DNA of 64,000 bases, from contig OZ361260.1 in the NCBI GenBank assembly GCA_977018835.1, forward strand, positions 2,480,001 to 2,544,000, given 5' to 3'. The stretch's first letter is position 1, and each line of letters begins with the position of its first letter. This document shows positions 10,684 through 42,884 of this stretch, piece by piece. This stretch comes from Minutocellus sp. GHC0000111. Its lineage: Eukaryota. The notes under the pieces were generated by a model. It did no database searches, had not been told where the DNA came from, and worked only from the letters and a program-made list of their open reading frames with translations. The translations under genes and the position numbers were made by a program.

Positions 10684-13106
10684 CACAGCACCATCTGCCA
10701 GCCGGATGACTCGCATACTTTTGGTCGCACTTTCGGTGGCCGGCCGGCGCGCGAAGCAACCGACCGGCACGCCCAACGCGAGCCACCATGGCGGCAAAAA
10801 TTCAAATTGCCGCCGCTACGTGCAGAACGAAGGCGATATCTCGCGCTGGTGTGGGAGAATTACGGCACGAGACCAACCAGGTACTCCCGACATCCTGGTG
10901 ATATTCCCGTTGGTCTCGATCCATAATTCTCCATGAGCAAAAAAAATAACGGCCGCAATCCCGCGGTCAACACCGCAGAGACACAGAACATGATTGCGGT
11001 GCAGGACGCCCTGGCTGAACTACTCGTCCGTCTTCGCAGAAAGGAACTTCATTACTACAATTTCATCGGCAACAACAACGACTCCTTGATGAATGTGTTG
11101 GGATGCAGTCCCATCATGTACGGCGCCGTCATGCACACTGCGGGCATCTTGGGTTTGAAGAAGAAGAAACACGAAGACTGCGATGTGTTTTTTGTGAGAG
11201 AGGACAGACAACCAGAGTGGATGGGATGAAATGGTATCAAGACACTGCCTTGCCGACGACGTTCAGCGAACCCCATGCAAAAAGAGCATATTTGTTCGCC
11301 TCGGTTCTATCAATCCTCGTGCAGCCGACGCTCTCCATGATGATGGATGGATGGCTTTCGACATGGTCACGGTCGAGCAACAATTTCGCCTCGAAATGCC
11401 GCCGCCGCGGCTCAATTTGACGAAGGCATGTAATGCATTCCTCAAGTCGGTCGCACCACATGTGTCGGTGGGATATGCGGCGATGGACTACGAAATCAAC
11501 AGGCAGATGTTGCTCGAGGCCCAGAAGTTCCCTGGTGGGCATGATGGCCAGCAGGAGGACGATGGGTGGGACAATGACGACGATGTTGGGACGGTGGGCA
11601 CCCTGACCACGACGGAGGCCGGCGAGATCAGTGAGGACGATGACGACAAAGACGAGGACTATGTGCCCTGTTGTGAGGAGGACGAAGCTGATGTTGCAAG
11701 AGAGGACGCTACACATGAAAAGCACACATGTGCAGCAGTGCTTTGAGAAGAATCGTCAGAAAAGCACGGTGATGGCGAGCCAGAGATGGGAGCTGTCGAT
11801 GATGCCGAGGATGACGATGCCCCTCACTTCCATTTCCTGAAAAAGGCCGGCATTGAGGCGGCCGACTCAGGTAAAATAAGGGCAGTGCTGGCAGAATGCT
11901 GTTAATGTTTCTGATGGCAACAACAAGAAGAAACCAAGGACAACAGAGTTCATCCACCACAACACCTCCACCAAAGGAACTCTCCTAGAGCACAATCGCG
12001 AGGAAGATGGCATGACGGATGACGACATCAAAGAGCTCTGCAAAGCTTGCTCTAATTTGCTCCACACTCTTGACGCAACATGTTCCAGGTGTTTCTCAAA
12101 TGGTACATGAAATGGGATGATGAGGCAAAGAAGGCTGTGAGAGAGCTTGAAGCATTGATTGCAAGTGCCCTCAAGCAAGCACGGGCAATCGGTGTTAGCA
12201 CAACGCCCAAGTGGCACTTACTCGAAGATCACATCTTGGACCAACACATTTGGCTAGCAGTGAAGAATGGATGGGGCGGCATCTATTGTTGGCTCGACGA
12301 ATCGTTTGTAGAGCGAGCCCACCAAGAGGGCGTTAAGGAAGATCGTCGGACTCAGGGCGTCAAGGGACATGAGGCCCAACAGACGGCGCAGTTCAAGGCT
12401 GAGGAGAGGGCATCCAATCCAATCCAAAGGTCGAGGGGAGGCGGACAGCATCGCGATTGAGCAAAAAAGTAAACAGCACACCCAAACAAACACATCACGT
12501 CCTTCTTAACTCACCCATTTATCTCCCAGACCAAAAAGTCCCTTTGTCGGGTTGATTGTTGCATAAACTTATCCCAACACTATCTGTCTCTCCTCGGGCG
12601 CAAAATTATTGTCGGAATTCCGGGAGAGAGAGGTCGAGTGGGGATGCGATCGGTCGGGATCAGCGAGAGTCGGTCATACGGGGGGTGCGGCGCAATCCCG
12701 GCAGTTTATCATCAACAACAACGTGGGAAAGTACCAGAGGGTCTGGGGCATCACAACGGGAGCACGACGAGCACAAAGACGGAGCAATGGCACCACCCCA
12801 GAGAAACGAACGGCCGGCCGACAGATGGAGGAAAAGTGGGCCGATGGTTCGTGGCGTTGATACGCAGCGGAGGCCAATCTGAGGATACAGTAAGCTTCAA
12901 CTATATCCAAACATGATAATGAATGCGTATTTGGTACGAAAATATAGTTATACGCCGGCGCAACGCCGACGGACCACCATGGTGTTGGACGGTCAAAGAA
13001 TGGGTGACGAACGAGATTGGGTTTTGGTGGGTTTCTTCGTGACGTGTTCGTCTTCTGCCGAAAAACGCTTCATCCGACCGGCGAAACAAGACGAGATGGG
13101 GCTGTG
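10684..13106 (+). mobile_element. DNA transposon copy 1 (Chapaev/Transib-like, internally deleted, degenerate)
   Basis: TIRs CACAGCACCATCT / AGATGGGGCTGTG (12 of 13 match). Near-identical to 40271-42884 with the same boundaries. Broken transposase ORF 10933-12460 contains TPKWHLLEDH...DESFVERAHQ. Confidence 0.85.
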
Positions 13107-13154
13107 TACGCATAGCCTCTCACTCATTTTTCGTTTCATGAAGCCACCGATGCG

Positions 13155-14000
13155 ATGAGCGGCACTGGCACCGGCAAAGGCTCCCGCCAGCAGCCAAAGG
13201 GCGACATTCCACCTGCTCACTTTGTGGCAAGTGCCTTGCAGCTGGGTATCTTTCCAAAAAGCGTGCAGGTTCCGGAGGAAAAAGGCGCCAAAGTCCAACC
13301 CGAAGAGAGGGACGGTATCAACGGTGCTGCTGGCAAGTCGTCCTTTCCTGTAGCTGTGGGGTCCAATTCCAGCACATTTGATCCCATCAAATGTACCGAT
13401 GGCGCATTGGATGCACTCAAGCAGTGTCACGCGGAGTTCTTGGTCCTCCTGGCATCGGAACTGGCGGCGGTATCCGAAGGTGATGGGAATGATGACAGCA
13501 ATGGACATACTCGCAAGAAAAAGAAGGATGCGAGTGCCGATAATATCAGTGGTAATATTAGTGCAAGCACTGGTTCAAAAGATGGGAAAGGCGCGGCAAA
13601 ACGTGGCGCTACAAAGCGCCCACGAAATGATGCAGCGAAATCTTCCGCTTCAGCTGATGCAGAGATCACACTTGACGCAGATACCGACGCGCTGTCCAGA
13701 ATACTGACCGAAAAGGACGTCATGGCATGCATGGAGCGCTTGGGCATGAGCCGCATCGCTGCAATGGCAATGGAAAATATTGAGCAGTGGAATGGTCGTA
13801 AAAAGTCGGCAACTAGTAGTATTGGTGGTGGCAGCAGTGCATCCAAGTCCGTCGCCAAGAAAGCGAAGAAGCTCAAAATGGGCTTTCGGGACAAGGATGT
13901 AACAGCGGAAATGATTGCCGAACAGGAGAGATTGCTGGCCGAAAGTGCTCGTGCCATGAAAGAACGTGTGCAACAGCAGAGAGAGGGCCCATTTTCATAA
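13155..14000 (+). CDS. Histone-fold protein, NC2beta/Dr1-like
   Basis: KCTDGALDALKQCHAEFLVLLASE...ILTEKDVMACMERLG...EMIAEQERLLAESAR resembles the NC2beta helices, with a long low-complexity insert. Confidence 0.6.
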   Translation: MSGTGTGKGSRQQPKGDIPPAHFVASALQLGIFPKSVQVPEEKGAKVQPEERDGINGAAGKSSFPVAVGSNSSTFDPIKCTDGALDALKQCHAEFLVLLASELAAVSEGDGNDDSNGHTRKKKKDASADNISGNISASTGSKDGKGAAKRGATKRPRNDAAKSSASADAEITLDADTDALSRILTEKDVMACMERLGMSRIAAMAMENIEQWNGRKKSATSSIGGGSSASKSVAKKAKKLKMGFRDKDVTAEMIAEQERLLAESARAMKERVQQQREGPFS

Positions 14001-14208
14001 CAAAGAGGGAAGCACTCGAGCTCGAGGGAAACACACATCATGGTTTGTATTGTAAATGAATCTTTTTCATTTATTCTAACTTCTATCTAGCGACGGAGTT
14101 TAAGAGCACGTGGAGTGTTTCACCAATCGCATGCTAACGCATATACAAAGTCTGCAACTGTAAATGACGTATTCGCCTCACACCTGGCGGCACCATACCA
14201 CATATTGC

Positions 14209-16309
14209 TTAGTCAAGGGCCGGGTTTGCCTCAAAGTTCTTGACTGCAAAGCTCGATGCGCAACCGCATGCACTTTCGCTGATGGGGTTGTTCACGACGG
14301 CAAAGGACGATCGGATCATCTCCTGGACAAAGTCGATGGTAGAGCCTCGCAATAAATCCAGCGAGGTCTTATCGATGACAACTCGAGCTCCATCCTTGGT
14401 AAAAACGATATCATCCTCAGGATCAATCCCAGTCATCTCGTCTTCATCGTCATCATCGTGCGCCGAACTTCCCTCCTCTCCAGCATCGTCAGTCTCCAAC
14501 TCAAATCTGTGGTGTAGATATGATGATGATCAGAGGAAAATAGAAATATAGGATCAGTGGATAGTTTTTTTCGTGAGCGAGATTTGAAAAGCCGCTGTTT
14601 GTTTTTATTTTCAAAATAGGAGAAAGTTAAGTAGTACATGGTGAGTTTGAAACCGTTGCCATTTCTTCTTCTGTCTCGCCTCCCCCCGAACTATCATGGG
14701 AACCACCTGCGCTGTTGCCAGCTGCACCGTTGCACCCTTTGTCGCAGGCGCGACGACCAGTTGCTTCGACCTGCTCTGCAAGCACCACGTCTTGCAGCTG
14801 TGGAAGCGTTATATCGATGCTAAACGAGGCGGCGTCCCGAACCCCGTGTACGACGTCCAGAGCGAAGAGGACTTCAGGCGCCTGAAGATCCTGCCCCTCA
14901 ACTCCCAATCCCAGCGGCTCAGAAATTTGAGCCCTGTCCTCATGTTCCGTCCCGGGACGGAACTGGCCACGATCAAGCAGGCTGCTCCTATCATTACCGC
15001 TGCCGTTGAGGGGCGCAAGAAGAGGGTCAAGGCCAACAACGACGCCAAAGCCGCCGAGGTGGAAGAGACGATCGCCGCTGCTGGTGAAATGGTTGACCTC
15101 AGCAAAGACGAGATTCAGAATGGGTGCCGCGCTATTGCCACGATCAACAACAAGATCGTCGATCCCAACGAAGACCTTGTCAGCATTAGCAAGGTCAAGG
15201 TCATCCCTGTCCCGGAGGGTCGAAACAAGGTGCAGGCGAACGAAAGCACGCGCAAGTACCGCTATCCCGATGCAGCTCTCCTACTGGATGATGCTGGGGG
15301 TGTGCCTCATGTTGATCCCAACTCCAACGAGATTGCCACGGTCGAGGTCGATACGATCAAGGAATTCAGGCAGGAGGTAGCATCGTTCCGCAGAAACGGT
15401 GGTGCCGAGGTGCTGCTTGTCTCGATGCAGCTGTGCAAGGAGACGACAACCAACAGCGCTCGCAAGCTTGAGAAGATGGGGCAGAACTTGTTCACCAGCA
15501 ACAACATCCCCCCCTATCATACGGAGGATGACGTCTACCGTAAGGGCAATTCGGCAGATCCGGCGGCGGTGACCATTACTGTTGCTGTGGGAGCACTGGA
15601 GTCAGTTCGCACGGGGCCATTCTACTTCAGCTCCTCTGTCCCATCCTTTTTTGAGCGTCGGATGAAGAAGTACTACAGCTGGGCCCGTGATGATGACCTT
15701 TGGCGTGATGAGGCGACGAGCGCTAGGCAGAGGAAGTTGGAATATGCTCGTGCTAGAAACGCGGCGAGGGCTGCCAGGAAGAAGGCCAAGACCGCCGCAT
15801 AGATAAAGAACAAGGCGATAAATAATAGACACCAAATACAACAAAAGCAGCAGTACGTACTTATATTCGAACCCCGAGCAGCCCCCAGCATCAACGTATA
15901 GGCGAAGATACAAGCTATCGCCACCATCCGGTCGCTTGGCTGCCAATCGCTTGATTTGCTGGGCGCAGCTAGCTGTGATAATTATGTCCTCGTCGCCACT
16001 CGTGCTCGTATCATCAGAAGAAGATTGAGTGACAGTCACCTGGGGAGGTGGTACAGGTGCCGAGCCGGCCTCGGTCTTTGTAATGGTTACCATTGACCTG
16101 GCATTTGATCGGCGGTGATGCAATAAAGTCACGCTGGCTTTGGATGATGACTGAACATTGCGAACAATGGCATGCGTTCTTACTGCCGAATGACGAAGAG
16201 GAAGGGCATTGCATCTCTGGCGTGTTGCTGTCGACGCCGCTGTTCCAAGGAATGAAGATACCGCTCGAGAGACCGGAGAGCGGCAAACTGTCGAGGAAAT
16301 GGACGCCAT
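14209..16309 (-). CDS. ISCA2: Mitochondrial A-type Fe-S cluster assembly protein ISCA2 (exons 16309-15861 and 14506-14209)
   Basis: LRLYVDAGGCSGFEYK|FELET...VVIDKTSLDLLRGSTIDFVQEMIRSSFAVVNNPISESACGCASSF. GTACGT donor at 15860 and ACAG acceptor at 14507 join in frame. Ser/Arg-rich presequence. Confidence 0.92.
14696..15802 (+). CDS. 368-aa hypothetical protein nested antisense in the ISCA2 intron
   Basis: Long intronless ORF with GC3-rich codons, N-terminal C-x4-C-x12-C-x4-C-x-HH and a basic C-terminal tail. Confidence 0.75.
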   Translation: MGTTCAVASCTVAPFVAGATTSCFDLLCKHHVLQLWKRYIDAKRGGVPNPVYDVQSEEDFRRLKILPLNSQSQRLRNLSPVLMFRPGTELATIKQAAPIITAAVEGRKKRVKANNDAKAAEVEETIAAAGEMVDLSKDEIQNGCRAIATINNKIVDPNEDLVSISKVKVIPVPEGRNKVQANESTRKYRYPDAALLLDDAGGVPHVDPNSNEIATVEVDTIKEFRQEVASFRRNGGAEVLLVSMQLCKETTTNSARKLEKMGQNLFTSNNIPPYHTEDDVYRKGNSADPAAVTITVAVGALESVRTGPFYFSSSVPSFFERRMKKYYSWARDDDLWRDEATSARQRKLEYARARNAARAARKKAKTAA

Positions 16310-16783
16310 TTGTCTCTTAGTATTGGCAGGTGTGGTAGTGGAAGGCAGTATTGGTATGTTGCGTTGGTCAAATCCCAAGTTCCGGCGAAGAAGCACGAAG
16401 AAGGAGCGACGGGCGACGGACAGACACAACACAAATTCTTGGCTGACTTGGCTGGCTGGTTGCTGGCCGCCTCTCTGCCTCTCATTCATGCAACCTCGCC
16501 GACCAAGAAGAACGAAGTCGCCCAAATATACAATTGTAGGACAAAAAGGAATTCTATCTACTATAAAGTAGCTTCTGTAAGCTTCTAATAGTCTGCCATG
16601 AGCCGGTCAAGCAACCGTCTCCAGTCCACGACCTCTCAACCGACCGGGGGGCATCATATCTGCTCCCCTGCAGCAATCAAACAATCGTCCTTTCTTCTTT
16701 CTTTCTTTCTTTCTTTCCTTCCTTCTTCTTTCTTGCTCGCGCTGCTCTGCCTTTTCACGCGAATCTATATGACTACTCCTCAC

Positions 16784-17770
16784 TTATTTCCCATCTTTGG
16801 TCTGCTCGCAATCATCGTCGTCATCTTTCGGTACATCTCGTCCAAGCGCCCTGTGGATCCTGGGGACGATTGCAATCGAAAAACCAAGCCGGATAGGTTC
16901 CGTAAATTTGGTCGCAATCCAAGCAACGCCAAGATTTGCCGTGTGGGGATTTTCCGCCACAGCATCGGCATATGGCTTGGTAAATTCATACTTTTGCATG
17001 AGCTGCACAACAAGGTCCACGGTCGTTTTGGTACCCTCGCCGTCTTCTCCTCCTCCGCCAATATGTATGCCTGGAATCCAGGAAACCGAGTCCATCAAGG
17101 TGGCGGGATCCATAAGACCGGAATCGATCCCTGCAAAGAGGGCTCCGAGCGTACCAAAGTACACGCTGAAGTAGGTCCCCAGGAAGGTGTAGCCATACTT
17201 TTGGATCATGTCCCGAACGCCGATGGCTCCCTTCTTCGCGGCCGCCCGGCCCTTTTGACGGGCCGAGTTAAGCCTGCTTTTCTTGGCGTCTTCATCATCT
17301 TTGGCTTGGCCAGGAGGAGCGCTGGAGGAGGAAAAGCTGGGGTGGGCGGCCGATGTGCTGGATCGGCTGGGACCGCCTTGGCCAGACGTGCTGAGCTGGC
17401 GCACCTGCTGAATCTTCCCACTTGTTGACGGCAGAATCGAGGCCGACTCCGAAGAGCACACATCTTGTCGCGCAAACGCGAGCGTCCTATTGGCAGATAA
17501 TCGTCCATTTCTGCGTAGTAATGGCAGCGGCATATATTGAAGTGATCCAGGTCTGGGTGCAGAATCATCTTCCGAGATTCTCGAAGAAGAATAAGGCACG
17601 GAAGAAAAAGACACCGAAGAAGAAGACCGATGATGCTGAGGTGGCGAGAATAGGCGTTGCCTTGGCAACAGCGCAGTGCGCGCCTCGCTCGCTGATCGGG
17701 CCGACTCGGAGACTCCTCCCACCAGCCTGCGCCTGAGCGGTGGTATTATCTTGGACGTCGATTGGAGCAT
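16784..17770 (-). CDS. DUF1279/FAM210-family mitochondrial membrane protein
   Basis: KYGYTFLGTYFSVY...AGIDSG...NLGVAWIATKFTEPIRLGFSIAIVPRI. Confidence 0.85.
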   Translation of the reverse strand: MLQSTSKIIPPLRRRLVGGVSESARSASEARTALLPRQRLFSPPQHHRSSSSVSFSSVPYSSSRISEDDSAPRPGSLQYMPLPLLRRNGRLSANRTLAFARQDVCSSESASILPSTSGKIQQVRQLSTSGQGGPSRSSTSAAHPSFSSSSAPPGQAKDDEDAKKSRLNSARQKGRAAAKKGAIGVRDMIQKYGYTFLGTYFSVYFGTLGALFAGIDSGLMDPATLMDSVSWIPGIHIGGGGEDGEGTKTTVDLVVQLMQKYEFTKPYADAVAENPHTANLGVAWIATKFTEPIRLGFSIAIVPRIHRALGRDVPKDDDDDCEQTKDGK

Positions 17771-18074
17771 GTTGCTTGCTGTTTGTGGGTCAGTCAATGG
17801 GTTGGCGTTTCTTCACGTGCCACACGGTCGACCTTCGCGACCTGCCCTCACGCGTTGGCGGTTGAAGAGAGGATTTCCGATAGCTAACGAGCTAATTTTG
17901 GTCCCGAAACGTCTTAGAAACAAAAAGATCTCCGCGACGAATGCGAAATCAGGCGAAATTTTCAGGAAGAGAACCTTGAAACCTGAAGCGGAAGCGATGT
18001 TTTCCACCCCTTCGATAATAGAAATAGCCACCGATAAAAAGCAAACCATTGAGCATATTCAAAGTCAAAGCAAA

Positions 18075-19940
18075 ATGACGAGCCACACGTTGCCTGATCT
18101 CATCGCTCGTCTCCACGCCAAGATACCAGAGGTCATTTCGTCTTCTTCTCCGTCGTCTGCTACAAATTCATTCTTGGGTTCGGTTTCCCTGCTCGGTTCC
18201 ACGTCCACGACGATCCTCGTTGTCATCCTAACATCAGCTATCCTGGTCTATCGCAACTCTCTCAAGCACAAACTGCAAGATATTTCCGTCCACCTGTCGG
18301 ACGGGACTATCAAGAAACTCATACCTCATCGTGGGACCACCTACTGGTTCGAGCACGATCGACATGATGATTCAAAACCATCTCGCGGCAGCAAACCCGC
18401 CAAGTCCTCCTCGGATATCAGTTCCACGGCGGGATCCGAGACCAGCGAACAGCGTGCCCTGCGTCGACAAATGACGTCCATTGGTCGATTCGCACTCCGT
18501 TCTCAGACCAAACGAAATCCCTGCATCGTTACGTTCTTCGTCGCCAGCTCCAACCCAAAAGGTCAGAGGGGCATAGATCGAGAAGAACTGGAGGAATTGT
18601 GGAGCAACCGAGTCATGGAGAAACACGAACGATTCCACTCGCGAATCTCGTCGGATGACGATCGATACTTTGAGGTGATTGACAAGGATGAGGCTCAGCA
18701 GATCATCGAGGTTGCACATCCATCCGTATATCGCAAGGAACTGGAAGAGCGCATCGTGAAGTATCTTACTTCTGATCTGGAGGTTGACAAGATGCTTTGG
18801 GAAGGACAGGTTTCCACCGGTCCACTGGGATCATCTGGAGCCATCAGCAAGGAGCAAATTTCCGACAGAAATCTCATAAATACTTGCGATACTGAAACCA
18901 TAAAATTGTTCCGAATCCATCATGCTATCGCAGATGGAGTTTCGATGGGTGTCGTGCTGGCGGATGCCTCCGATGAGGCAGATAAATTGGACGGATTGAT
19001 GAAGGCAGAAGTTAAAAAGCGCAAACGTCGAAATGAGCAGCGAAGTGTACTTGAAAGGGCGGCCCGCTGGCTGCTAATGATGGTTATGTTTTACTTTGTC
19101 GGTGGGATAAAGGCTGTGGTATTGCAGGCCTGGCGCATGTTTCACTCTATCAACCCGTTTGATGTTATCATTGCTCAATCTAAAACCCCCGCTGGAAAAA
19201 GAACGGTAGCGTGGCGGCCGATTGGGCCAGTAGATGAAATGAAGAAGATCGCCAAGACAATATCGAAGAAAACAACCATCAATGATGTCTCGGTTTTTCT
19301 TGTTACTGCTGCCATTAAGAGGCAACTCGCTTGGCATTATGAGCAGATGAAAGACAGCAATCAGAAGCTTTCCATACCATCTCACATCAACATCTGTGTG
19401 CCTGTCCACTTGCTTGGAGGAGCGCTTGTTGACCCTGCCACAGGAAAACGAGTGCCGGTTGGCAACAAAATTGGGGCATTTGTGGCGGCTATACCCACCG
19501 CGGAAAAGGACACAAAGCGTCCAGCTGCCGGGAGAGTGAAAAAGTGCTCCGCGGCTCTGACGGAACAGAAGACGACGCCGGCCCCTCTCATCGCCTGGGC
19601 CGCGGCCAAATTCTTCAGTGACTACGCCCCCCTTAGCATCGCAAAGTATACAATGAGGCATACCAATGGCCAATCGGCAGCAGTTGTTAGCAACGTGAAA
19701 GGATTCCCCTTCAAGACACATTGGAATGGAAGGAGGAACGAGTTCCTGTGCGCCTTTCTGCCATTGCCACCTGGAATACCTATTGGTTGTGTTGTCCAAA
19801 GTTATGGGGGGGAAATGAGCTTTTCTATTGACGCTGATAAGAGAGCAGTGCCGGATGCCGGGCAGTTTGCTGATTGGATGCTAGAAGAGTACGAACGGCT
19901 GAAGGAAGAAGTGCTTGATGATGACTACATGTACCGGTAA
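18075..19940 (+). CDS. Wax ester synthase/diacylglycerol acyltransferase (WS/DGAT)
   Basis: RIHHAIADG catalytic motif, TTINDV, GNKIG, VVSNVKG and SYGGEMSF. N-terminal TM helix. Confidence 0.9.
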   Translation: MTSHTLPDLIARLHAKIPEVISSSSPSSATNSFLGSVSLLGSTSTTILVVILTSAILVYRNSLKHKLQDISVHLSDGTIKKLIPHRGTTYWFEHDRHDDSKPSRGSKPAKSSSDISSTAGSETSEQRALRRQMTSIGRFALRSQTKRNPCIVTFFVASSNPKGQRGIDREELEELWSNRVMEKHERFHSRISSDDDRYFEVIDKDEAQQIIEVAHPSVYRKELEERIVKYLTSDLEVDKMLWEGQVSTGPLGSSGAISKEQISDRNLINTCDTETIKLFRIHHAIADGVSMGVVLADASDEADKLDGLMKAEVKKRKRRNEQRSVLERAARWLLMMVMFYFVGGIKAVVLQAWRMFHSINPFDVIIAQSKTPAGKRTVAWRPIGPVDEMKKIAKTISKKTTINDVSVFLVTAAIKRQLAWHYEQMKDSNQKLSIPSHINICVPVHLLGGALVDPATGKRVPVGNKIGAFVAAIPTAEKDTKRPAAGRVKKCSAALTEQKTTPAPLIAWAAAKFFSDYAPLSIAKYTMRHTNGQSAAVVSNVKGFPFKTHWNGRRNEFLCAFLPLPPGIPIGCVVQSYGGEMSFSIDADKRAVPDAGQFADWMLEEYERLKEEVLDDDYMYR

Positions 19941-20174
19941 CTAACCGGCCAAGAATAGAAAAGGTTGACTGAGTTAGTTGTTGCTCGAGACAGCACAAAA
20001 CCGCCATATAGCAGATCGAAGTGAGTGCCCCGGTAGATTCCGGTAAAAATACATGTAGACTGAGACAGCATCTTGATTCATCTAGGAATCCTACCGATTC
20101 ATTCGATTCAAGTCCATACCGTAGACGGCCAGACTGTACATACCGCAAAACGCCTCATTTTTGCACCCTTCACC

Positions 20175-21497
20175 ATGATGACCAGCTCAGTCCAAGCCGC
20201 CTTACGGAGATACACTTGCGCAACTGCCCTGTTGGCGTGCTCGTCGCCCCTTCCTGTTGGCGGTTTCATTCTTTCTTCCCATCGTGGTATCCGCAACATC
20301 TCAAATGGCCCAACGAGAAATCACTGCGTCTCCTGCTCGAGCTCAGCGAGAAGCAGCATCAACCCTCTCTGCCCCGCTCCTTGGTCTACTACTAGAAATG
20401 TGGCGTTACAAGCAAGATTGCGTCGGCAGCACACATTTTATTCATCTACACTGCTGCGATCATTTGCATCTGAGGCCGAAGTAGAAGCTGAAACTTTCCT
20501 GGACAAGACTGTATCGTCCGCCCTTTCCCATTCCACACAGCTATTCCAAAATCATGACATTCCGGAACCAGAGCGGAGTGCGGTTCATTTGCTCTCGGTG
20601 GCACTTGATATGGATTGGTCTAGGGGGTATCGGCAGCTTCTTGCCGTGATGGACAACCCGGCGATAGAACCTGCCCTTTGCGAGAGAAAGCTGACATTGG
20701 AGGAGGCAACCACATATGCCTCCATGGTCGAGCGACGAATGAAACACGAACCATTGCAATATATAATAGGCAGGTGGGACTTCTGCGATTTCACACTCAA
20801 GGTACGCGCACCGTGCCTATGTCCCCGCCCAGAAACGGAAGAGCTGGTGGATCATACCGTGCTGGAAGTGGAACGGTTGCTGGCCTTACGCAAGGATAAG
20901 AGCAAGGCTGTGCGCATTCTGGATGTGGGAGCAGGCACTGGCGCTATTGGCATTGCCCTTGCCAAACGCTCTGGCAACAATGTGGATGTGACGGCCATCG
21001 ATATCGACGAAACTGCCGTAGCATTGTCAAATGAAAATGCGATGGATATTCTGAGTCCTATCGGTAATTCTGGTCAGTATCGAGCGATTTTGTCTGGAGC
21101 TTCAGACTTTACCAACAAGCAATTGGACAAAGGAAGCGACAAGCACGTTTTCAACTTTGATGTTGTGGTGTCCAACCCACCATATATTCCGCGTGCCGAT
21201 ATGTCAACTTTATCCGCTGATGTGATTGACTATGAGTCCGATCAGGCTCTTTGCGGTGGAGAAGACGGCCTCGATGTTGTCAGAGATATTGTTGATCGGC
21301 TCCCGGAATGGTGTTCCGAGGATGGATGCGTCTGTTGGATGGAAGTAGATACATCGCATCCAATTATGGTAGGGGAGTGGCTTGGTAACGAGGGCAGCGA
21401 TTCGGGTGTTGGAGCAAGAAAGGTTGAATTTGTCGAGGGGGGCAAGGATCTATGTGGCAGAGATCGGTTTGTAAAGCTTCGTATTTCCTCTTCGTAA
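20175..21497 (+). CDS. prmC: Release factor glutamine N5-methyltransferase (HemK/PrmC), probably organelle-targeted
   Basis: RRMKHEPLQYIIG, PRPETEELV, LDVGAGTGAI, VSNPPYI and ALCGGEDGL. Possible signal plus VGG-F presequence. Confidence 0.9.
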   Translation: MMTSSVQAALRRYTCATALLACSSPLPVGGFILSSHRGIRNISNGPTRNHCVSCSSSARSSINPLCPAPWSTTRNVALQARLRRQHTFYSSTLLRSFASEAEVEAETFLDKTVSSALSHSTQLFQNHDIPEPERSAVHLLSVALDMDWSRGYRQLLAVMDNPAIEPALCERKLTLEEATTYASMVERRMKHEPLQYIIGRWDFCDFTLKVRAPCLCPRPETEELVDHTVLEVERLLALRKDKSKAVRILDVGAGTGAIGIALAKRSGNNVDVTAIDIDETAVALSNENAMDILSPIGNSGQYRAILSGASDFTNKQLDKGSDKHVFNFDVVVSNPPYIPRADMSTLSADVIDYESDQALCGGEDGLDVVRDIVDRLPEWCSEDGCVCWMEVDTSHPIMVGEWLGNEGSDSGVGARKVEFVEGGKDLCGRDRFVKLRISSS

Positions 21498-21707
21498 TTT
21501 CCTCTTCGTAATTTCCTCTGGCTAGTAATAAAGACCCAGGTTCTACATATAATGAAACGGCGAATGGCTATCATGTGCATCTAGCTTAGTTGGTGCAATT
21601 ATGAAACGAAAAAAAATGACATCGAAACAGATACGGAAAAAGAGGAACGAAAATTGTGTGACAGTTACAGTCCAAATGATACCGTGTTCCTCCTGCATTT
21701 TGACTTG

Positions 21708-23012: not shown

Positions 23013-23343
23013 TGTATTATTTATTTGACCAAGCAAGAAGGAATACAAAAAGATATTGTACAGCCGGAATGCCGTCTAGGAAGCGTTTCGGCAAAAAGAT
23101 TGAGGTACTAGCTAGTTAGCACGCCTTTGCCGCCTCGGGTACTGCTTTTGGCTCGCAACGGAGCTACTCTTCGATACTTGCGAATGATGATGATGTGTTC
23201 CATCGCGAGAATTCCAAGCAAAACGGCCTGTCCGTCGCCCTCGGCCTCAATTTTCAGCCAATCATGCGCGAGGCCAAAGTAGGATAGTTGCATAGTTGGA
23301 GTGGACAGCAAAGAGTAAGAAGTAGTCCAATAGACCCAACGAA

Positions 23344-24180: not shown

Positions 24181-24322
24181 GCGAGAGCACTACCAGTAAT
24201 ATTGACATATTGCTATGTGTAGAAGTATTTATGCATCATTTTTCCGGCAGACCTTGATTGTATTGTAACATGCACTTTGTTATCTCTACTATACTTTATA
24301 CGGTACATAACGCTCGATGGCA

Positions 24323-30044: not shown

Positions 30045-30500
30045 GTTGATGAGTTCTATATTTCTTGGTAATGTCGTTCGCTACTTTGAAGAGAGCAGAG
30101 GAATATTTATGATACTTTTTTCGAGAGAGGAATGGGAATGAAAATGCGTCGAGGCGTCAATCCGAACGGTACGGTCCACTGCGGCCAGGCCATGACCAGC
30201 ATTAGCACAGACTGCTGCAGACCGCGGGCCACGTCGCTCTTTCTCGGCCGCAACATGCTGCTGCCCAAGACTTCGGATGCCATTGTTGCGGCCCACAGCT
30301 CGTCGGCGAGATCTTTGTCGGCGAGGTTTTGATCCCGGCGCGAGCCTGACCGCCAAATCTGCAGGCCGGCTGGCTCGCACCAAACTCATGCGGCCGGCAC
30401 TTGCTTCGTTTTCACATGCGGACCAGAATGAGGGAGATTCTTCTCGTGCTTCTTTGGAAGTACGCACTTTTCCAACATTGCTTACTGCTCTTTCGGCACC

Positions 30501-32321
30501 ATGGAATCCTCCTCCACGCCCTCCCCACCGTCGTCTCCGTCGTCGCCTACAATCAGCACGTCGCCGCCAGCTGGCCTAGACCCCATCCTCAGCCAGGCGG
30601 CCGTATCCATCCAGCAGGTCGAAGAGAACGATGCCCTCCTCCAAGTTACCGATCAGATTGCTCTGGAGACGGTCGCCGTCGCGGTTCCCACCGAGTTCGT
30701 CGAGCGGCTCAACGAGGAGCTGGCCAAGATCGGCGCCGAGGACGACGACAAAAGTAGCAGTGCTTCGCGTGCTGCCCATCGTCGCGGCTGGTCTCTTGCT
30801 TCGGAAGATTTGATTGTCGATGCAGTCGTGAAGGCCGATGACGATGCTGCACTTGTAGACGCCGATGCTACCGCAGGTGGTGTTCGATCTCGTGGATGTT
30901 CCATCGATTACGGCAGTATCCAGGGCGCGCTCCTTCCTACTTCTGCCGATACCGGCACAGCTGCTGCCGCAGATGCCGGCCATAACTCAGCCATCATAAT
31001 TGATCTGCAAGCGTCGACATTGGACTTTGTCAATGCCATCACAGAGCCCAGCGTCGATCCCAACACCATTCTGCCGCCTTCGACCGCCGAGGAGATCCTG
31101 CAGGAGTCCGACATCAACGTCAAGACCGATCTGGACGAGCCCGATGTGGCCACCGCGACGGCTGTCCTGGCGGCTCCGCTCGGCGGAACGGCCGTGGTGG
31201 CCGAGATTATCAGCGGGGAGGTGGCCGAGCAGGTGGACATTGTCGAAAATGCCGTCGTGTCCAAGGCTGGCGATGCCACGCTGATCCAGGCGGCCGCTGC
31301 TGCCATCCAAACGAGTGTCGCAGATGCTGTCCTGCCCAGTGTGGAGGAGGGACAGCTTGCAGTACCACCCGAATCCGAGGCTGTGGCCGTTCCACCGGGA
31401 CAGCAGCCAGTTTCGTTCATTCTGGCGCGCCATCCAGTATGGATTGCCAAGGGAGGATACCCGACAGCCGAAGAGATCGACGAGAGCATCCACCATCTCG
31501 ACAACTTGATCAAGGCCCTGAAGAACGTGCAGAAGGAGCTGTACGAAGAGGGCCTGAGTCCTGGCTTCGAGACCAAGGGCTCTACCAAGCCATGGCTGAG
31601 CAAGCAAACCTCCCGCGTTTACCAGACTTTGCCCAGCGTCAATGCCCATTCGGCCACCGGTCCGGCCATTCCCGTCCCCAGTCCAGCAGCCGCAGTGCGA
31701 TACTACCAGAGCATCCGCGAGACCTGTGTCGAAAGGAAGCGCTACGTCGAGGCCGTGACCCGCGCCAAGGAAGATGGCGATGCCTTTTGCTCCTGCATTC
31801 GAGATTGGCAGCATACTCAGGGAGACGTTCTCGCCAAATTGAGCAACCAAAGCCTGGAACAGGATATGATCCGCGAGGCCAGCGATGCGGTGACCGTCCG
31901 CATGTCCCAGCCCGGATGCATGCGAGGAGAGGCCTGGGATCGTCTGTACCAGCCGGAAAGCTGCCCCACACCGGAAAGTCAGGGTCATCTCTACACGCCC
32001 AAGACGGCCATTCGTGTCATCGGAGGCAGGGATGATTACATTGCCACGCTTACCTCCCTCGCTTTGAGTGCCGAGTCAACGGTAGAAATTGCCACCTGCT
32101 ATCTGTTTCCTCACGATCCCGCCCAGAGATACTTACTCCTCGATCTTCTCCCCTACGTCGCGCGAAAGGGTGTTACCGTCCGTCTTCTTTGTGACATGAT
32201 GCCCGTGGAGAGTTCCATCCTCAAGAGTGCCCTCAAGGCCCGCGAAAAGCTCGTCAAAGATGCCATTGGAGGAGCAGAGACGGAGAAGAAGTCCCGATCT
32301 GGCATATCCCCCACGTCGTAA
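30501..32321 (+). pseudogene. Apparently truncated phospholipase D/cardiolipin-synthase-superfamily protein
   Basis: IRVIGGRDDY...AESTVEIATCYLF..D....LL...ARKGVTVRLLCD is the start of a PLD domain. The ORF ends before any HxKxxxxD motif, about 200 bp from the convergent gene. Confidence 0.55.
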
Positions 32322-32525
32322 GGGGCAGCGGCCAGACGGCCGGTTGGCGATGAATGCTGATCGTGAGATCGTGAGTGTGATGTGAAACGACAAGAGATTT
32401 CTATGGCCAATAAATCAAGAGCAAGAGCAAAGGAGAGTACCGGTACACTAGATTCTAAATGTCTCAAAAGATTAAGATCGCCTTCGTGTACATATGTGTA
32501 CCGATATGTGTGTACATGTACAATC

Positions 32526-34235
32526 TTATCTATTCCTCCTCAGAAGAGCAACGAAGAATCCACCCGTGTCTTGAGCCTGGGGCAACAACCGAGAGCACAA
32601 TTCCAAACGCATGCCCTCGACATCATCTTTGTTTGCCCACATGCTCCTCTCGGCTTGCTCCATACCACCTTCCCTGGCATCCTGATAGGAAGAATAATAT
32701 TTTAGCTTGCCAAAGTCGTCTCCTGTATCATCTTCGCTATCGTCCCCGGCGTTATCATCAGTGCGGTCCTCCTCATAGGTGGCAATTTTCCAATCGCTGA
32801 CTCCTGCTTGTCTCTGGAACTTTGGAAGCAAAGAAGTCGGCCATTCCACCAACTCCACAGCGGGACTCTCTTCGTCATCATCTTCAGAAGTACCATCACC
32901 ATCTTTATTCCTGTTATTGAGCCTTCGAAGCGCTGCAGACACAACCGCCTCGTCTTCAACTGGGTTGAGGCTGCATGTACTGTAGCAGACAATACCACCC
33001 ACTTTGATCAGCTCCAATGCCCTGATCAATATCTTGAGCTGCAGTCCATGCAGTGCATTTCCAGTCGCTGGAGTCCACATGGGCAAAATAAACTTATCCT
33101 TTCTGATTGTTCCATCTCCAGAACACGGCACGTCACAAATAATTGCATCAAACAGCTTGCCCGATCTTGGCGAAGGGAATTGGCTGGCATCAAAATTGGT
33201 GTAGGTGATACGAGTGGTGAGGTCGGCGTCCAAACCAGATCGACCAACGGCATCACGGAGGGAATCCAACCGACCGGCGTGGACGTCGTTGGCGATGACC
33301 CGCCCTCGCTTCCCAGTTTTGGGGTTGGTGGCCGCGGCAATTTCCAACGCCTGCATCGTCTTACTACCTGGACTTGCGCAGAGATCCAGTACTTTGCACC
33401 CCGGAACGATGGCATTGAGAGCCGACAGTGCCAGCACCGGTAGCATCGATCCCAATTCCTGTCGAGCGAGTGTGCCATTGAGACTACCGTCGACCAGCAA
33501 TTGCTTGAGTTCTGGTGACGTTCGGGACAGATTCACCTTGGAAAGATTCGACTGTGCCGTCGCCTGGTAGATGCTGCAATCTGGATCATATGCAACTGGA
33601 GCTACCAGATCTGAATGTTTCTTGGCCAATTGCTTTGATATAGTGCCTTGATATGTCGACGAGGCATCGGGATTGCGAAGGCGGAATGTCAATGGCAGTG
33701 GTCGCGACAGGGCATGGATATATGGAGCCAGATGCGGATATTTCTTTGATTGAGACTTGTATGCCTGTACCAGCGGGTGAGATTCGTCCGCTTCAGGAAT
33801 GTCTGCGGAACTTTCACCTTCTTCTGGCGGCTGAGGCTCTGATTCTGATGTGCTCGTCTGATGGTGCTGACCCTTCTTTTTCTTGCGTCGCTTGGCAGCT
33901 CTCGACATGCCCTTGCCTCGTTGCTGCCCGCCGCTCTTGGTAGGCGATGCCGAGGTGTTTAAATTACCATCTGTGGCAGTCTTGTCTGCCACCACACCAA
34001 TCGGCTGGCTCCCATAGTACGATACAAAGAGAGAATATCCGGCGCCAGACTTGCGATGCCACAAAGCAAGAGCATTCTGATCTTGCTTGGTAATGTTCTT
34101 GCTCGCCGATGACTTGCGTGCATCCGAGAGGGGATTGTTGGTGCCACCACCACCGCTGCTCTTGGAGGTGGAAGACGCATTGGTAGTGGCATCGATGGCA
34201 CCGTCCCCGTTCCTCTTGCGCTTGCTTTTTCCCAT
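32526..34235 (-). CDS. RsmB/NOP2/NSUN-family RNA (cytosine-5) methyltransferase, NSUN2/Trm4-like
   Basis: RQELGSMLPV, VLDLCASPGSKT, DVPCSGDGT, YSTCSLNPVEDEAVV and DTGGFFVA. Confidence 0.92.
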   Translation of the reverse strand: MGKSKRKRNGDGAIDATTNASSTSKSSGGGGTNNPLSDARKSSASKNITKQDQNALALWHRKSGAGYSLFVSYYGSQPIGVVADKTATDGNLNTSASPTKSGGQQRGKGMSRAAKRRKKKKGQHHQTSTSESEPQPPEEGESSADIPEADESHPLVQAYKSQSKKYPHLAPYIHALSRPLPLTFRLRNPDASSTYQGTISKQLAKKHSDLVAPVAYDPDCSIYQATAQSNLSKVNLSRTSPELKQLLVDGSLNGTLARQELGSMLPVLALSALNAIVPGCKVLDLCASPGSKTMQALEIAAATNPKTGKRGRVIANDVHAGRLDSLRDAVGRSGLDADLTTRITYTNFDASQFPSPRSGKLFDAIICDVPCSGDGTIRKDKFILPMWTPATGNALHGLQLKILIRALELIKVGGIVCYSTCSLNPVEDEAVVSAALRRLNNRNKDGDGTSEDDDEESPAVELVEWPTSLLPKFQRQAGVSDWKIATYEEDRTDDNAGDDSEDDTGDDFGKLKYYSSYQDAREGGMEQAERSMWANKDDVEGMRLELCSRLLPQAQDTGGFFVALLRRNR

Positions 34236-34824: not shown

Positions 34825-34827
34825 ACA

Positions 34828-36306: not shown

Positions 36307-36390
36307 GTGCGTGGGGAGAGTGTGTCCATTTGTACTTCGAGATAATCTTATTGTTAATGTTTTAACTGAATCAAACTACGAGATTCTTAA

Positions 36391-39467: not shown

Positions 39468-39944
39468 TTATTTCCCCGCGTCATTGTCCGAGGAAGAGCC
39501 GGGCATGCTGAGGGCCTCTCTCTGTCTCGCTAGCTCCGCCAAATCTTCCGTCCAGAACTGACCACTCGCGGTCGGCATGCCTCCCCCGCTCTGCTCTCCG
39601 TCGACGCTGTCGTCGCCAATGTCACAACCGGTTCGGGCACTCAGCTCTTGGATGAGGCGGGCATTGCGAAGCAACGCATCGGAGGTCTCCCGGGCCAACA
39701 CTTGGCGCTTACCGCACACATCTTGGCAGTCGGCCTCGAGCTGATCCATGGAGGATTCCAACGCCGAGATGCGTTCGAGGAGGCGCACCGGATCGGGAAT
39801 CGGCTGGCGGTTACCGCCACCATCGGCATGCTGCTGTTCTGCTCCCAATGCCGATAAAATTTTGGTTAGCTTCCTTTTGATGGCTGAGAATTCGGCGCGA
39901 GTTCGGGACAGCTCGTCTGTCCATGACGCCGATGCCGTCTCCAT
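39468..39944 (-). CDS. Putative spindle/kinetochore protein Ska2-like
   Basis: Short coiled-coil protein. AEFSAIKRKL...PDPVRLLERISALE..L...C resembles the Ska2 NP.kL motif. Confidence 0.5.
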   Translation of the reverse strand: METASASWTDELSRTRAEFSAIKRKLTKILSALGAEQQHADGGGNRQPIPDPVRLLERISALESSMDQLEADCQDVCGKRQVLARETSDALLRNARLIQELSARTGCDIGDDSVDGEQSGGGMPTASGQFWTEDLAELARQREALSMPGSSSDNDAGK

Positions 39945-40270
39945 AGGTCCAATGTTGTTGAGTTGGGTCCGTTTGGGCGCTGTGGGTTCAAATAGCATCC
40001 GAAGTCAATGCAATGCAAGCTCTCCTATCCCGATACCTTAGGTACGAGTATCTGTCTCATTTTCACTTCGTTCTCGTGCTCATCGTGGTTCTTGAGGGGA
40101 AACTGAAATATCGTCATGGTGATGAAGCAGAAACGTGTCGCAATGGCCAAAAACAGGCAGAGTGTCCGTGAGAAACATGAAACGGCCGCCGGCCGGCCGG
40201 CCATGGTAACAAAACCCAACAAGGAGATCGATGACCACAGCGCCGACCAGGAGTTTACTTGGTCCATCCC

Positions 40271-42884
40271 CACAGCACCATCTGCCAGCCGGATGACTCG
40301 CATACTTTTGGTCGCACTTTCGGTGGCCGGCCGGCGCGCGAAGCAACCGACCGGCGCGCCCAACGCGAGCCAGCCACACCATGGCGGAAAAAAATTCAAA
40401 TTGCCGCCGCTACGTGCAGAACGAAGGCGATGTCTCGCGCTGGTGTGGGAGAATTACGGCACGAGACCAACCAGGCACTCCCGACATCCTGGTGATATTC
40501 CCGTTGGTCTCGATCCACAACTCTCCATGAGCAAAAATAATAACGGCCGCAATCCCGCGGTCAACACCGCAGACAGAGTTGCGGTGCAGGACGCCCTGGC
40601 TGAACTGCTCGTCCGTCTTCGCAGAAAGGAACTTCATTGCTACAATTTCATCGGCAACAACGACTCCTTGATGAATGTGTTGGGATGCAGTCCCATCATG
40701 TACGGCGCCGTCATGTGCACTGCGGGCATCTTGGGTTTGAAGAAGAAGAAACACGAAGACTGCGACGTGTTTTTTGTGAGGACAGACAACCAGAATGGAT
40801 GGGATGAAATGGCATCAAGACACTGCCTTGCCGACGACGTTCAGCGAACCCCATGCAAAAAGAGCATGTTTGTTCGCCTCGGTTCTATCAATCCTCGTGC
40901 AGCCGACGCTCTCCGTGATGATGATGGATGGATGGCTTTCGACATGGTCACGGTCGAGCAACAATTTCGCCTCGAAACACCGCTGCCGCGGCTCAATTTG
41001 ACGAAGGCATGCAATGCACTCCTCAAGTCGGTCGCACCACATGTGTCGGTGGGACATGCGGCGATGGACTACGAAATCAACAGGCAGATGTTGCTCGAGG
41101 CCCAGAAGTTCCTTGGTGGGTGCAATGGCCAGGACGATGGGTGGGACAATGACGACGATGTTGGGACGGTGGGCACCCTGACCACGACGGAGGCCGGCGA
41201 GATCAGTGAGGACGATGACGACGAAGACGAGGACTGTGTGCCCTGTCATGAGGACGAAGCTGACATTGCAAGAGAGGACGCTACACATGAAGCACACATG
41301 CAGCAGCACTTTGAGAGAAGAATCGTCAGAAGCACGGTGATGGCGAGCCAGAGATGGGAGCTGTCGATGATGCCGAGGATGACGATGCCCCTCACTTCCA
41401 TTTCCTGAAAAAGGCCGGCATTGAGGCGGCCGACTCAGGTAAAATAAGGGCAGTGCTGGCAGAATGCTGGAGAGCTTTTTATCTATTAACATTTCTGATG
41501 GCAACAACAAGAAGAAACCAAGGACAACAGAGTTCATCCACCATAACACCTCCACCAAAGGAACTCTCCTAGAGCACAATCGCGAGGAAGATGGCATGAC
41601 GGATGACGACATCAAAGAGCTCTGCAAAGCTTGCTCTAATTTGCTCCACACTCTTGACGCAACACATTCCAGGTTTCTGAAATGGTGCATGAAATGGGAT
41701 GATGAGGCAAAGAAGGCTGTGAGAGAGCTTGAAGCATTGATTGCAAGTGCCCTCAAGCAAGCACGGGCAATCGGCATTAGCATGACGCCCAAGTGGCACT
41801 TGCTCGAAGATCACATCTTGGACCAACACATTTGGCTAGTGAAGAATGGATGGGGCGGCACCTGTTGGCTCGACGAATCGTTTGTAGAGCGAGCCCACCA
41901 AGAGGGCGTTAAGGAAGATCGTCGGACTCAGGGCGTCAAGGGACATGAGGCCCAACAGACGGCGCAGTTCAAGGCTGAGGAGAGGGCATCCAATCCAAAG
42001 GTCGAGGAGAGGCGGGAGCGAAACTCTCGGGTGGCAAGAACAAGGAAAAGGACAAGGACCGAAGCTGTTAAAGCAGAGAAACTGATGACAAGCGCCAACA
42101 AATGATCATGATGGCCACCGATGGAGATGAGGATGTAGAGATGGGAGCAGGGCATGTGTAAAATTAGAAAATGAAATTACACTGCTGCCACACAATGACA
42201 AATGAATTGCACAATCCAACTTTTACAAACACAGCATCGCGATTGAGCAAAAAAGTAAATAGCACACCCAAACAAACACATCACGTCCTTCTTAACTCAC
42301 CCATTTATCTCCCAGACCAAAAAGTCCCTTTGTCGGGTTGATTGTTGCATAAACTTATCCCAATGCTATCTGTCTCCTCTCGGGCGCAAAATTATTGTCG
42401 GAATTCCGGGGGAGGTCGAGTGGGGATGCGATCGGTCGGGATCAGCGAGAGTCGGTCATGCGGGGGGTGCGGCGCAATCCCGGCAGTTTATCATCAACAA
42501 CAACGTGGGAAAGTACCAGAGGGTCTGGGGCATCACAACGGGAGCACGACGAGCACAAAGACGGAGCAATGGCACCACCCCAGAGAAACGAACGGCCGAC
42601 AGATGGAGGAAAAGTAGGCCGATGGTTCGTGGCGTTGATACGCAGCGGAGGCCAATCTGAGGATACAGTAAGCTTCAACTATATCCAAACATGATAATGA
42701 ATGCGTGTTTGGTACGAAAATATAGTTGTGCGCCGGCGCAACGCCGACGGACCACCATGGTGTTGGACGGTCAAAGAATGGGTGACGAACGAGATTGGGT
42801 TTTGGTGGGTTTCTTCGTGACGTGTTCGTCTTCTGCCGAAAAACGCTTCATCCGACCGGCGAAACAAGACGAGATGGGGCTGTG
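40271..42884 (+). mobile_element. DNA transposon copy 2 (Chapaev/Transib-like) with 4-bp TSD
   Basis: Same TIRs as copy 1. TCCC flanks both ends (40267-40270 and 42885-42888). Frameshifted transposase remnant 40527-42105. Confidence 0.88.

Follow-up and report, generated by a model that had tools for sequence, protein, structure and literature searches.

Introduction

Is TpA being erased from repeated DNA by a process of its own, or have copies of a repeat come to differ at this dinucleotide through familiar routes of decay? This question is raised by a 64,000-nucleotide stretch of contig OZ361260.1, referred to here as the window, which contains two copies of a non-autonomous cut-and-paste DNA transposon (Table 1). 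A sequence-only reading of the window, based on a hand alignment of these copies, had noted that where one reads TA the other often reads TG or CA, and had proposed strand-symmetric A to G change at TpA. Upon comparison with many further members of the transposase family, we consider it nearly certain that TA is the ancestral state and that the hypermutation is confined to the repeat. None of the three outcomes that the sequence-only reading had named as grounds for its rejection was encountered.

The window copies differ mainly at TpA

Self-BLAST of the window revealed a dispersed repeat pair in two blocks (10684-12444/40271-42015, 93.2% identical, and 12445-13107/42231-42885, 97.1% identical), the other repeat being an inverted pair of BiP genes (98.6% identical). 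Upon global alignment, copies 1 and 2 were seen to differ at 56 substituted positions, 37 of which are of the TpA type. These comprise 16 sites where copy 1 has TA and copy 2 has TG (11) or CA (5), three sites of the opposite polarity, with TA in copy 2, and nine clean reciprocal CA/TG sites, corresponding to 18 positions. Two further reciprocal sites, in the block at 11540-11543, appear as mismatches in the local alignment and as gaps in the global one. The other differences correspond to four sites with CG in one copy and CA or TG in the other, five transversions and ten other transitions. The hand alignment had given nearly the same numbers (about 16, 3 and 12 sites, respectively, and about 5 CG sites). 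When dinucleotides shared by the copies were included, 28 TpA-class sites differed versus 36 shared TA, and four CpG-class sites differed versus 165 shared CG (Fisher p 1.6e-14).

The composition of the copies, earlier described as poor in TpA and rich in CpG, is indeed of this sort. The observed/expected (O/E) ratio of TpA is 0.39 at 10001-12000 and 0.30 at 40001-42000, the lowest two of the 32 2-kb bins of the window (0.42-0.74 in the others), with CpG O/E in the same two bins being 0.99 and 0.93. The differences are also present in reads, as both letters were found in contigs of public sequencing runs at most of the 40 rows listed, of 87, with runs X8-X14, which account for small shares, being left out of such comparisons. 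At one position, 41861, the window letter was found in none of the aligned public-run contigs. Assembly error as cause was ruled out, given that alternative letters appear in contigs of several runs and that neighboring genes keep long open frames.

In addition to substitutions, the copies are distinguished by 23 indels (global alignment, a terminal artefact left out). Many of the small insertions are 2-6 bp tandem duplications, and such insertions are about as frequent as non-TpA substitutions. The family proteins considered below contain 29 in-frame insertions versus six deletions in 14145 aligned residues (p 1e-4), while in run contigs, the ratio of indel to substitution rows was 82/87 in the element versus 220/1756 in a mostly coding control, with thresholds having differed between the two. 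Small insertions neither track the TpA load of a copy (rho 0.02, n 38) nor are located closer to TpA codons (p 0.30), and are possibly the outcome of a second repeat-linked mutational process.

TA as the ancestral state

Polarity was addressed using 39 family proteins, namely, the 41 listed of the 91 members of four clusters, minus P0021 and P0029, which are short and unrelated. P0005 and P0006, relatives that are 60-70% identical to the family, served as outgroup. At 17 Tyr columns, family proteins present Tyr 160 times, Cys 151 times, His 138 times, Arg once and other residues four times, such that the Tyr to Cys/His changes seen earlier between two copies recur across the family. At six ATA columns, Ile appears 59 times, Met 53 times and Thr 67 times. 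As such, transposase codons for Tyr and Ile (ATA) have been rewritten in family copies. By contrast, the outgroup at the same 17 columns contains Tyr 13 times, Phe three times and Ile once, and never Cys, His or Arg.

The near-absence of Arg is telling, since it is seen once in 450 cells versus at least 46 times expected were T and A to mutate independently. As a CG ancestor would mean Arg, TA is ancestral and the intact dinucleotide is needed for mutation, with CG products being nearly absent because a TpA site that has been mutated once is immune. With TA ancestral, both the repeat-induced point mutation (RIP) of fungi, which the sequence-only reading had already set aside, and decay of CpG are effectively excluded. 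Distant relatives agree at some columns, with Tyr in 10/10 at column 19 and 7/8 at column 158, and Ile in 10/10 at column 132. In the cluster of outgroup member P0006, Tyr is found at 14/15 columns, and a few TpA-compatible changes appear among its 15 variable columns. A Thalassiosira oceanica cluster, in which 1/1252 columns is variable, was uninformative as to the signature. Finally, TA is the majority reading in read contigs at several sites, that is, at 40432 (A at 85% of run X15 depth, G making up the rest), 42728 (87%), 42730 (84%), 41687 (67%) and 40639 (58%).

Mutational spectrum and flanking context

Rates were calculated from every protein-visible single change from inferred ancestral codons, per copy-site and with no correction for saturation. 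Columns at frameshift or alignment edges were left out of the rate counts, as was column 154, which contains overlapping TpA, from the flank analysis. A to G change was seen at 548/1971 copy-sites after T, 35/3022 after A, 7/3678 after C and 4/5208 after G. The rate after T is thus about 225 times that after C or G, about 43 times that of CpG decay (C to T at 17/2654 CpG copy-sites and 15/9434 elsewhere) and 250 times that of transversions at TpA (4/3590, as compared to 29/54136 overall). C to T change before A was seen at 6/3365; TpA is lost, not gained. Accordingly, change is almost purely from A:T to G:C, and 100 informative CpG sites are nearly intact in the family.

The letters on either side of TpA matter as well. 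With R and Y denoting purine and pyrimidine, the share of mutated copy-sites is 354/863 (41%) for RTAY, 112/401 (28%) for YTAY, 58/465 (12%) for RTAR and 0/149 (0%) for YTAR (RTAY versus the rest, p 1.3e-5). At the DNA level, RTAY O/E is 0.54 in copy 1 and 0.25 in copy 2, versus 0.79 elsewhere in the window, whereas YTAR O/E is 0.21 and 0.25 in the copies versus 0.27 elsewhere. A weaker tier is seen after A, where AAT/AAC are changed at 35/1462 and AAA/AAG at 0/1560, corresponding to a 9-fold excess over A after C or G. Across 69 strand-sites, rate showed no correlation with predicted unpairing (residual p 0.45 and 0.59), no link to CpG distance or density, and no coding-strand bias (plus 0.27, minus 0.26).

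Hits are independent and strand-symmetric

The strand symmetry proposed from the two copies holds for the family as a whole, with TG appearing as product 204 times and CA 205 times, both strands thus being equally hit. At five nearly saturated sites, 22 haplotypes were found among 29 copies, and linkage at p<0.05 was seen in 0/44 testable site pairs, 35 of which presented all four combinations. Processive single-strand bursts were not seen in family copies, where same-strand concordance within a copy was 0.492 versus 0.497 upon permutation. Copies nonetheless differ in how heavily they have been hit, with the variance in TpA load among copies exceeding that of all 2000 permutations. Given the lack of same-strand clustering and the uneven load, hits appear to have accrued singly, in the course of many cell divisions. 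Non-TpA variants, by comparison, include 65 singletons, nine doubletons and one triple. Since almost all of these are private, the copies are not freely exchanging sequence; gene conversion could also break linkage, although these private background variants argue against free exchange. The distribution of changes fits a scenario in which copies would stem from a single master, or a few of them, and then have been hit individually, on either strand, for differing times. The uneven load, together with insertions for which empty alleles exist (see below), is compatible with an ongoing process that is active in some lines.

Confinement to the repeat and a possible influence of copy number

Whether single-copy DNA shows the same change was considered in region 13110-33100, a mostly coding control. 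Ratios of transitions to transversions of 60:6, 71:7 and 62:7 in the element compare to 261:150, 191:112 and 206:114 in the control in the same public runs. In the control, 9/30 transitions follow T versus 20% expected (p 0.17; 40 of 1756 control rows listed). The duplicated BiP genes, said earlier to be free of TpA bias, bear this out, with TG/TA at one of the eight internal differences listed. Confinement thus rests on a single-copy control of 20 kb and on the BiP pair, neither of which presents the TpA loss seen in the element.

In full-length copies, Tyr was mutated at 15/26 positions in segments common to deleted copies, as compared to 6/36 internal positions (p 0.001). The same contrast where the outgroup provides coverage gives 4/20 internally (p 0.016), these values coming from two independent copies and lacking flank data for internal sites. 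In P0002, P0024 and P0027, the internal segment, confined to rare full-length copies, is less mutated than are segments common to deleted copies. As shared segments are more mutated and CpG decay is 4-fold above background, targeting would seem to follow copy number or silencing; the same excess of CpG decay suggests that the element may be methylated. The retention of Tyr by a second, low-copy transposase family (see below) hints in the same direction.

A scan of 500-bp bins for other mutated repeats flagged those starting at 15001 and 39501, the former being at single-copy depth. The latter, a GC-rich bin (39501-40000) just upstream of copy 2, has a TAY O/E of 0.25, reflecting either spreading from the element or chance.

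A candidate mechanism and its rivals

The pattern is probably the work of a host process that targets silent repeats and would hit transposon copies one by one after insertion. In its likeliest form, a deaminase of the ADAT/TadA type would turn TpA adenine, on whichever strand, into inosine, following which replication would fix G in its place, turning TpA into TpG or CpA. Single hits would accumulate over many cell divisions, and targeting would follow copy number or silencing. Deamination of adenine is favored since there are only transitions, a strict 5' T, hits on both strands and single hits; still, we see the odds that this is the chemistry of TpA loss as evenly balanced. A more far-reaching proposal is offered tentatively, as something that could well prove wrong, namely, that diatoms possess a heritable, copy-number-sensing defence that is the mirror image of RIP. 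In this defence, a natural base editor of DNA adenine, either shared with chlorarachniophytes or convergent on theirs, would be guided to foreign DNA present in repeats and would change the A of RTAY to the point where the tyrosines of transposases are lost.

Known enzymes provide partial precedents for adenine deamination. Fungal Tad2/Tad3, as the Tad2-Tad3-Ame1 complex, has been retargeted to mRNA, where U at -1 is strongly preferred, with A/G at +1 and loops being favored (PMC11156358), while amphioxus ADAT2 deaminates DNA adenine and favors GAA, TCG and hairpin loops (PMC10354150).

Several observations weigh against the interpretation put forward here. As far as these sources describe the ADAT flanks, they do not match, given that GA is the coldest context in the element, that +1 is a pyrimidine and that loops are not preferred. 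By sequence, A to G at TpA cannot be told from T to C at TpA, and part of the hot sites were deduced from the same variation. Tyr is not the uniform residue of distant homologues at the columns considered (His in 7/10 at column 20; His in 22 and Tyr in 12 of 81 at column 941), and some columns are nearly fixed for one product (Cys in 20/21 at column 61; His in 37/37 at column 235), suggesting that the founder may already have been partly mutated there. The multi-copy data are proteins, such that synonymous and non-coding changes are invisible, include near-duplicate rows (P0001/P0019 and P0024/P0027), and were not confirmed to originate in all cases from the assembly of the window. Being mostly coding, the control region is not a neutral baseline, and run X7, a divergent one, is the sole source of 30 of the 40 control rows listed (of 1756). 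Lastly, not every repeat is hit, as a second, related low-copy transposase family (P0203, P0057 and P0204; P0057 is 37% identical to P0027), encoded on contigs equal in length to those of some family members, keeps nearly all of its Tyr residues, with one copy-specific Tyr to His change among 25 columns.

Other routes to the same changes were also weighed. Error-prone synthesis by a Y-family polymerase of the Pol eta type, recruited by mismatch repair at methylated repeats or in post-excision gap repair, would insert G opposite template T at WA motifs (W being A or T), with slippage generating small duplications. Tracts made by Pol eta contain many A to T and A to C changes, a sizeable share of transversions and clustered same-strand patches. 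The WA preference of this polymerase, with TA above AA, matches the ranking seen here (PMC6423074), and small insertions are abundant both between the copies and in the family proteins, yet TpA transversions are 250-fold rarer than transitions, same-strand clustering and any link of rate to CpG distance or density are missing, and the insertions are independent of TpA load and of proximity to TpA codons. We therefore consider this route unlikely. The same degree of doubt applies to a lesion at thymine, in which a TET/JBP-type oxidase would mark the T of TpA in transposons as 5-hydroxymethyluracil (5hmU) or 5-formyluracil, which mispairs with G. Seen from the opposite strand, A to G after T amounts to T to C before A, and such a lesion would yield only transitions. 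In dinoflagellates, transposons are silenced by TET/JBP-generated 5hmU, with TA and TC being the preferred contexts in which it takes the place of T (PMC11572971). In the element, however, TC is spared, since A to G after G, equivalent to T to C before C, was seen at 4/5208, and the dinoflagellate study makes no mention of diatoms and, in the passages covered, shows no mutagenesis (PMC11572971). An adenine modified by a methyltransferase at RTAY palindromes in repeats, such as N6-methyladenine, could also be deaminated or miscopied, in parallel to the decay of 5-methylcytosine at CpG, and the hottest target is indeed a palindrome, as are methyltransferase sites. Eukaryotic N6-methyladenine, though, is known at ApT rather than TpA and is not known as a strong A to G mutagen. 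Diatoms retain DNMT4, which is related to the RIP enzyme RID, albeit a cytosine enzyme (PMC9998398). As the preference seen here is graded and takes in the non-palindromic YTAY and AAY, we regard a modified adenine as quite unlikely.

Another possibility is that few mutations occurred, these having been passed among copies through GC-biased gene conversion or handed down by several masters. This would account for the nearly fixed columns (61, 235, 933 and 941), and conversion from short copies could explain the excess of mutated Tyr in the shared segments of full-length copies (15/26 versus 6/36, p 0.001) and break linkage. Nonetheless, there is no reason for conversion to single out TpA or its flanks, most non-TpA variants are private (65/75 singletons), and TG and CA each represent about half of the products at the same site, with CG nearly absent. 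As such, this explanation is given little weight. Ordinary polarity, that is, RIP-like change of CpA to TpA, or CpG decay plus a second deamination, could not be ruled out by comparing two copies alone, and low-level CpG decay is real (17/2654). It would, however, call for Arg, Cys or His ancestors, none of which is found in the outgroup, where Tyr or Phe occupies 16/17 columns. Together with the single Arg in 450 cells, the almost intact 100 informative CpG sites and the TA majority in reads at several sites, this renders ordinary polarity scarcely credible. Deamination of adenine thus remains the chemistry that we favor.

Comparison with known systems

In RIP, as occurs before meiosis in Neurospora and other ascomycetes, in dependence on RID and in response to repeat homology or copy number, dense dinucleotide-specific transitions in repeats change CpA to TpA and erode transposase genes. 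The process considered here is similar in that dense dinucleotide-specific transitions in repeats erode transposase genes, with an intensity that may follow copy number. It is unlike RIP in that TpA is destroyed and not made, A:T and not C:G is the target, same-strand runs within a copy are not seen and the host is not a fungus. Likewise, it is unlike decay of 5-methylcytosine, as CpG is neither ancestral at variable sites nor depleted (CpG O/E 0.93-0.99). It resembles the Pol eta phase of somatic hypermutation in that A:T mutations are found at WA, with TA above AA (PMC6423074), and differs in the near-absence of transversions and of patches. With ADAT/TadA systems it shares the restriction to transitions and, with the fungal system, the strong preference for U, here T, at -1. 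As described in the sources cited above, fungal editing differs in acting on RNA, in being non-heritable and in favoring A/G at +1 and loops, and amphioxus ADAT2 in favoring GAA/TCG, as compared to a pyrimidine at +1 and a coldest GA here.

The closest parallel is the TpA-restricted hypermutation of integrated DNA of nucleocytoplasmic large DNA viruses and virophages in Bigelowiella natans reported by Mettrop et al. (bioRxiv 10.64898/2026.01.13.699255). In mutation-accumulation lines, only some of which showed activity, 231/302 de novo mutations fell in two viral insertions, 230 of these being A:T to G:C and, by the text, all on TpA, at a rate about 1000-fold above background; ADAT2 was proposed as candidate, and TpA-poor coding sequences were enriched for DDE and reverse-transcriptase domains (10.64898/2026.01.13.699255). 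The sequence-only reading had stated that no characterized mechanism is known for the pattern. As concerns the mechanism, this stands, whereas the signature itself has now been described in B. natans, as far as the text of that preprint goes.

In both cases, TpA is converted to TpG/CpA almost only by A:T to G:C change, on both strands, in foreign DNA alone and at two to three orders of magnitude above background. The host of the element is likely a diatom, as all matches of a neighboring carrier protein for which an organism is given are from diatoms (Trieres, Odontella, Nitzschia, Seminavis and Thalassiosira). Relative to the available text of the preprint, the system described here thus differs in being from a probable diatom (a stramenopile), in concerning a multi-copy cut-and-paste transposon rather than a single-copy viral insertion, in being polarized from many copies rather than from mutation-accumulation lines, and in presenting an AAY tier (35 changes after A beside 548 after T), with that text placing all 230 mutations on TpA. 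The flank rule of RTAY > YTAY > RTAR > YTAR is seen here, with no flank analysis appearing in the main text of the preprint, where the words 'diatom' and 'stramenopile' are also absent (10.64898/2026.01.13.699255). A literature search for the TpA pattern in diatoms yielded no paper beyond this preprint, most subscription journals being outside the coverage of the search. Judging from that text, the process works like that in Bigelowiella and differs in lineage, substrate and second target tier. What the element family adds is the half-way state, enough copies to address independence, one-hit immunity and a quantitative flank rule.

If this is true, diatoms join one rhizarian alga as a second lineage of eukaryotes in which invading DNA undergoes targeted mutation at adenine, making this a candidate widespread genome defence. 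Since no natural genome-targeted DNA adenine deaminase of such kind was identified in the literature covered, the flank rule, along with the weak AAY tier, provides a fingerprint with which the activity of candidate enzymes can be compared in assays. CRISPR editing is possible in some diatoms (PMC9998398). In practical terms, TpA loss distorts divergence-based dating of transposons in diatoms, inflates the Cys, His, Met and Thr content of proteins predicted from repeats, and is missed or misread by RIP indices.

The element and its neighborhood

The reading-frame remnants in the two copies match a protein family encoded on megabase contigs, near full-length forms of which comprise 920-1097 residues. 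An internal deletion has removed residues 329-900 of the long protein P0027, including its GADHG, GAGDL and CxxC motifs, from both copies. Because of this loss and of frameshifts, both window copies are non-autonomous. The predicted structure of P0002 (mean pLDDT [predicted local distance difference test] score 85.5) matched RAG1 (E 1.7e-12), BbRAGL (E 9.4e-9) and HzTransib (E 2.8e-5) in a Foldseek search, and P0027 contains GAGDL at 612, CVCC at 632, HLLEDH at 978 and WLDES at 1001, with catalytic residues having been assigned by motif order. The transposase is thus predicted to adopt a RAG1/Transib-type fold and to belong to the CMCT clade (CACTA/EnSpm, Mirage, Chapaev, Transib and RAG1). 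Members of this clade are described as having C(2)C and H(3-4)H motifs located after the second D and before the final E (PMC12730594), together with 5'-CA..TG-3' termini and a 2-5 bp target duplication (PMC12730594, PMC4411706). By these descriptions, the element is CMCT-like in its RAG1/Transib fold, C(2)C and H(4)H motifs, CAC..GTG termini and short target duplication, and differs from Transib in that this duplication is of 4 bp rather than 5 bp.

A sequence search of solved structures with P0027 yielded no matches, and one with the family profile returned coiled-coil noise, plus RAG1L at E 0.087. The only Pfam match, a sub-threshold one to Gag_p24 (E 0.003-0.07), was dropped because the fold is RAG1-like. 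Those relatives of the transposase that bear an organism name come from Thalassiosira. A large set of RAG1-fold transposases (P0068-P0200) is 24-32% identical and devoid of Pfam annotation, with 623 clusters being found at E <=0.001 and named members occurring in Thalassiosira. An Rfam scan of the window gave no matches. When DNA of more copies or of outgroups was sought in metagenome contigs, 415 pattern matches were obtained, none of which was confirmed, and a second scan gave no matches.

The terminal inverted repeats are 13 bp long and start with CACAG. Copy 1 is flanked by CGCG on the left (10680-10683) and TACG on the right (13107-13110), such that no matching target duplication is found; a 2-bp duplication beside a TACG target would explain these flanks. 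In run X17, conserved pieces of the element have a depth of 16,556-19,585 versus 150-181 for single-copy pieces, giving a rough copy number of about 90-130 per genome. As a contig of run X17 joins 40241 to 42887, skipping copy 2, and contigs of runs X15 and X17 diverge from the window where copy 1 ends on its right side (loose end 13114), continuing into left-flank-like sequence, both insertions seem to be polymorphic. In a contig of run X15, the right end of the element (42884) is joined to the left end (40271) with CGCG between and a depth of 196, corresponding to either a head-to-tail pair or an excised circle.

Table 1. Positions of the transposon copies, their parts, example sites and the control gene pair in the window.
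Feature	Position	Strand	Remarks
Copy 1, non-autonomous CMCT-clade (RAG1/Transib-fold, predicted) DNA transposon	10684..13106	+	2423 bp; lower TpA mutation load, small insertions more numerous
Copy 2, same element	40271..42884	+	2614 bp; more mutated at TpA
Left terminal inverted repeat, copy 1	10684..10696	+	CACAGCACCATCT; 12/13 letters match right end
Right terminal inverted repeat, copy 1	13094..13106	-	
Left terminal inverted repeat, copy 2	40271..40283	+	
Right terminal inverted repeat, copy 2	42872..42884	-	
Target-site duplication, left of copy 2	40267..40270		4 bp, TCCC
Target-site duplication, right of copy 2	42885..42888		4 bp, TCCC
Frameshifted transposase remnant, copy 1	10933..12444	+	C-terminal end lost in 215-bp deletion at 12444/12445
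Frameshifted transposase remnant, copy 2	40527..42161	+	about 540 codons in the short form of the family
Junction of internal deletion common to both copies	41566..41574 (copy 1: 11982-11990)	+	
Example three-state site, protein column 158	41055..41056		TA in copy 1 (11474), CA in copy 2; family His 18, Cys 10, Tyr 4 of 32
Example saturated reciprocal site, column 242	41307..41308		TG in copy 1 (11739), CA in copy 2; family His 18, Cys 17, Arg 1, Tyr 0 of 36; outgroup Tyr
Inverted BiP/HSP70 gene pair (control, outside the element)	55780..61401		98.6% identical, without TpA bias

Beyond the element, 503-residue matches to NAD-GH (56441-57952 and 59247-60758) lie antisense to the BiP genes and are presumably the known artefact of antisense translation. 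The region at 50092-55530 encodes pyruvate:ferredoxin oxidoreductase domains followed by flavodoxin, FAD- and NAD-binding domains, and is what we take to be a fused pyruvate:NADP+ oxidoreductase, an anaerobic-type enzyme. Finally, 46993-49308 encodes a metallo-beta-lactamase-fold domain together with a response-regulator receiver and a GAF domain, a combination whose product is possibly a signaling phosphodiesterase.

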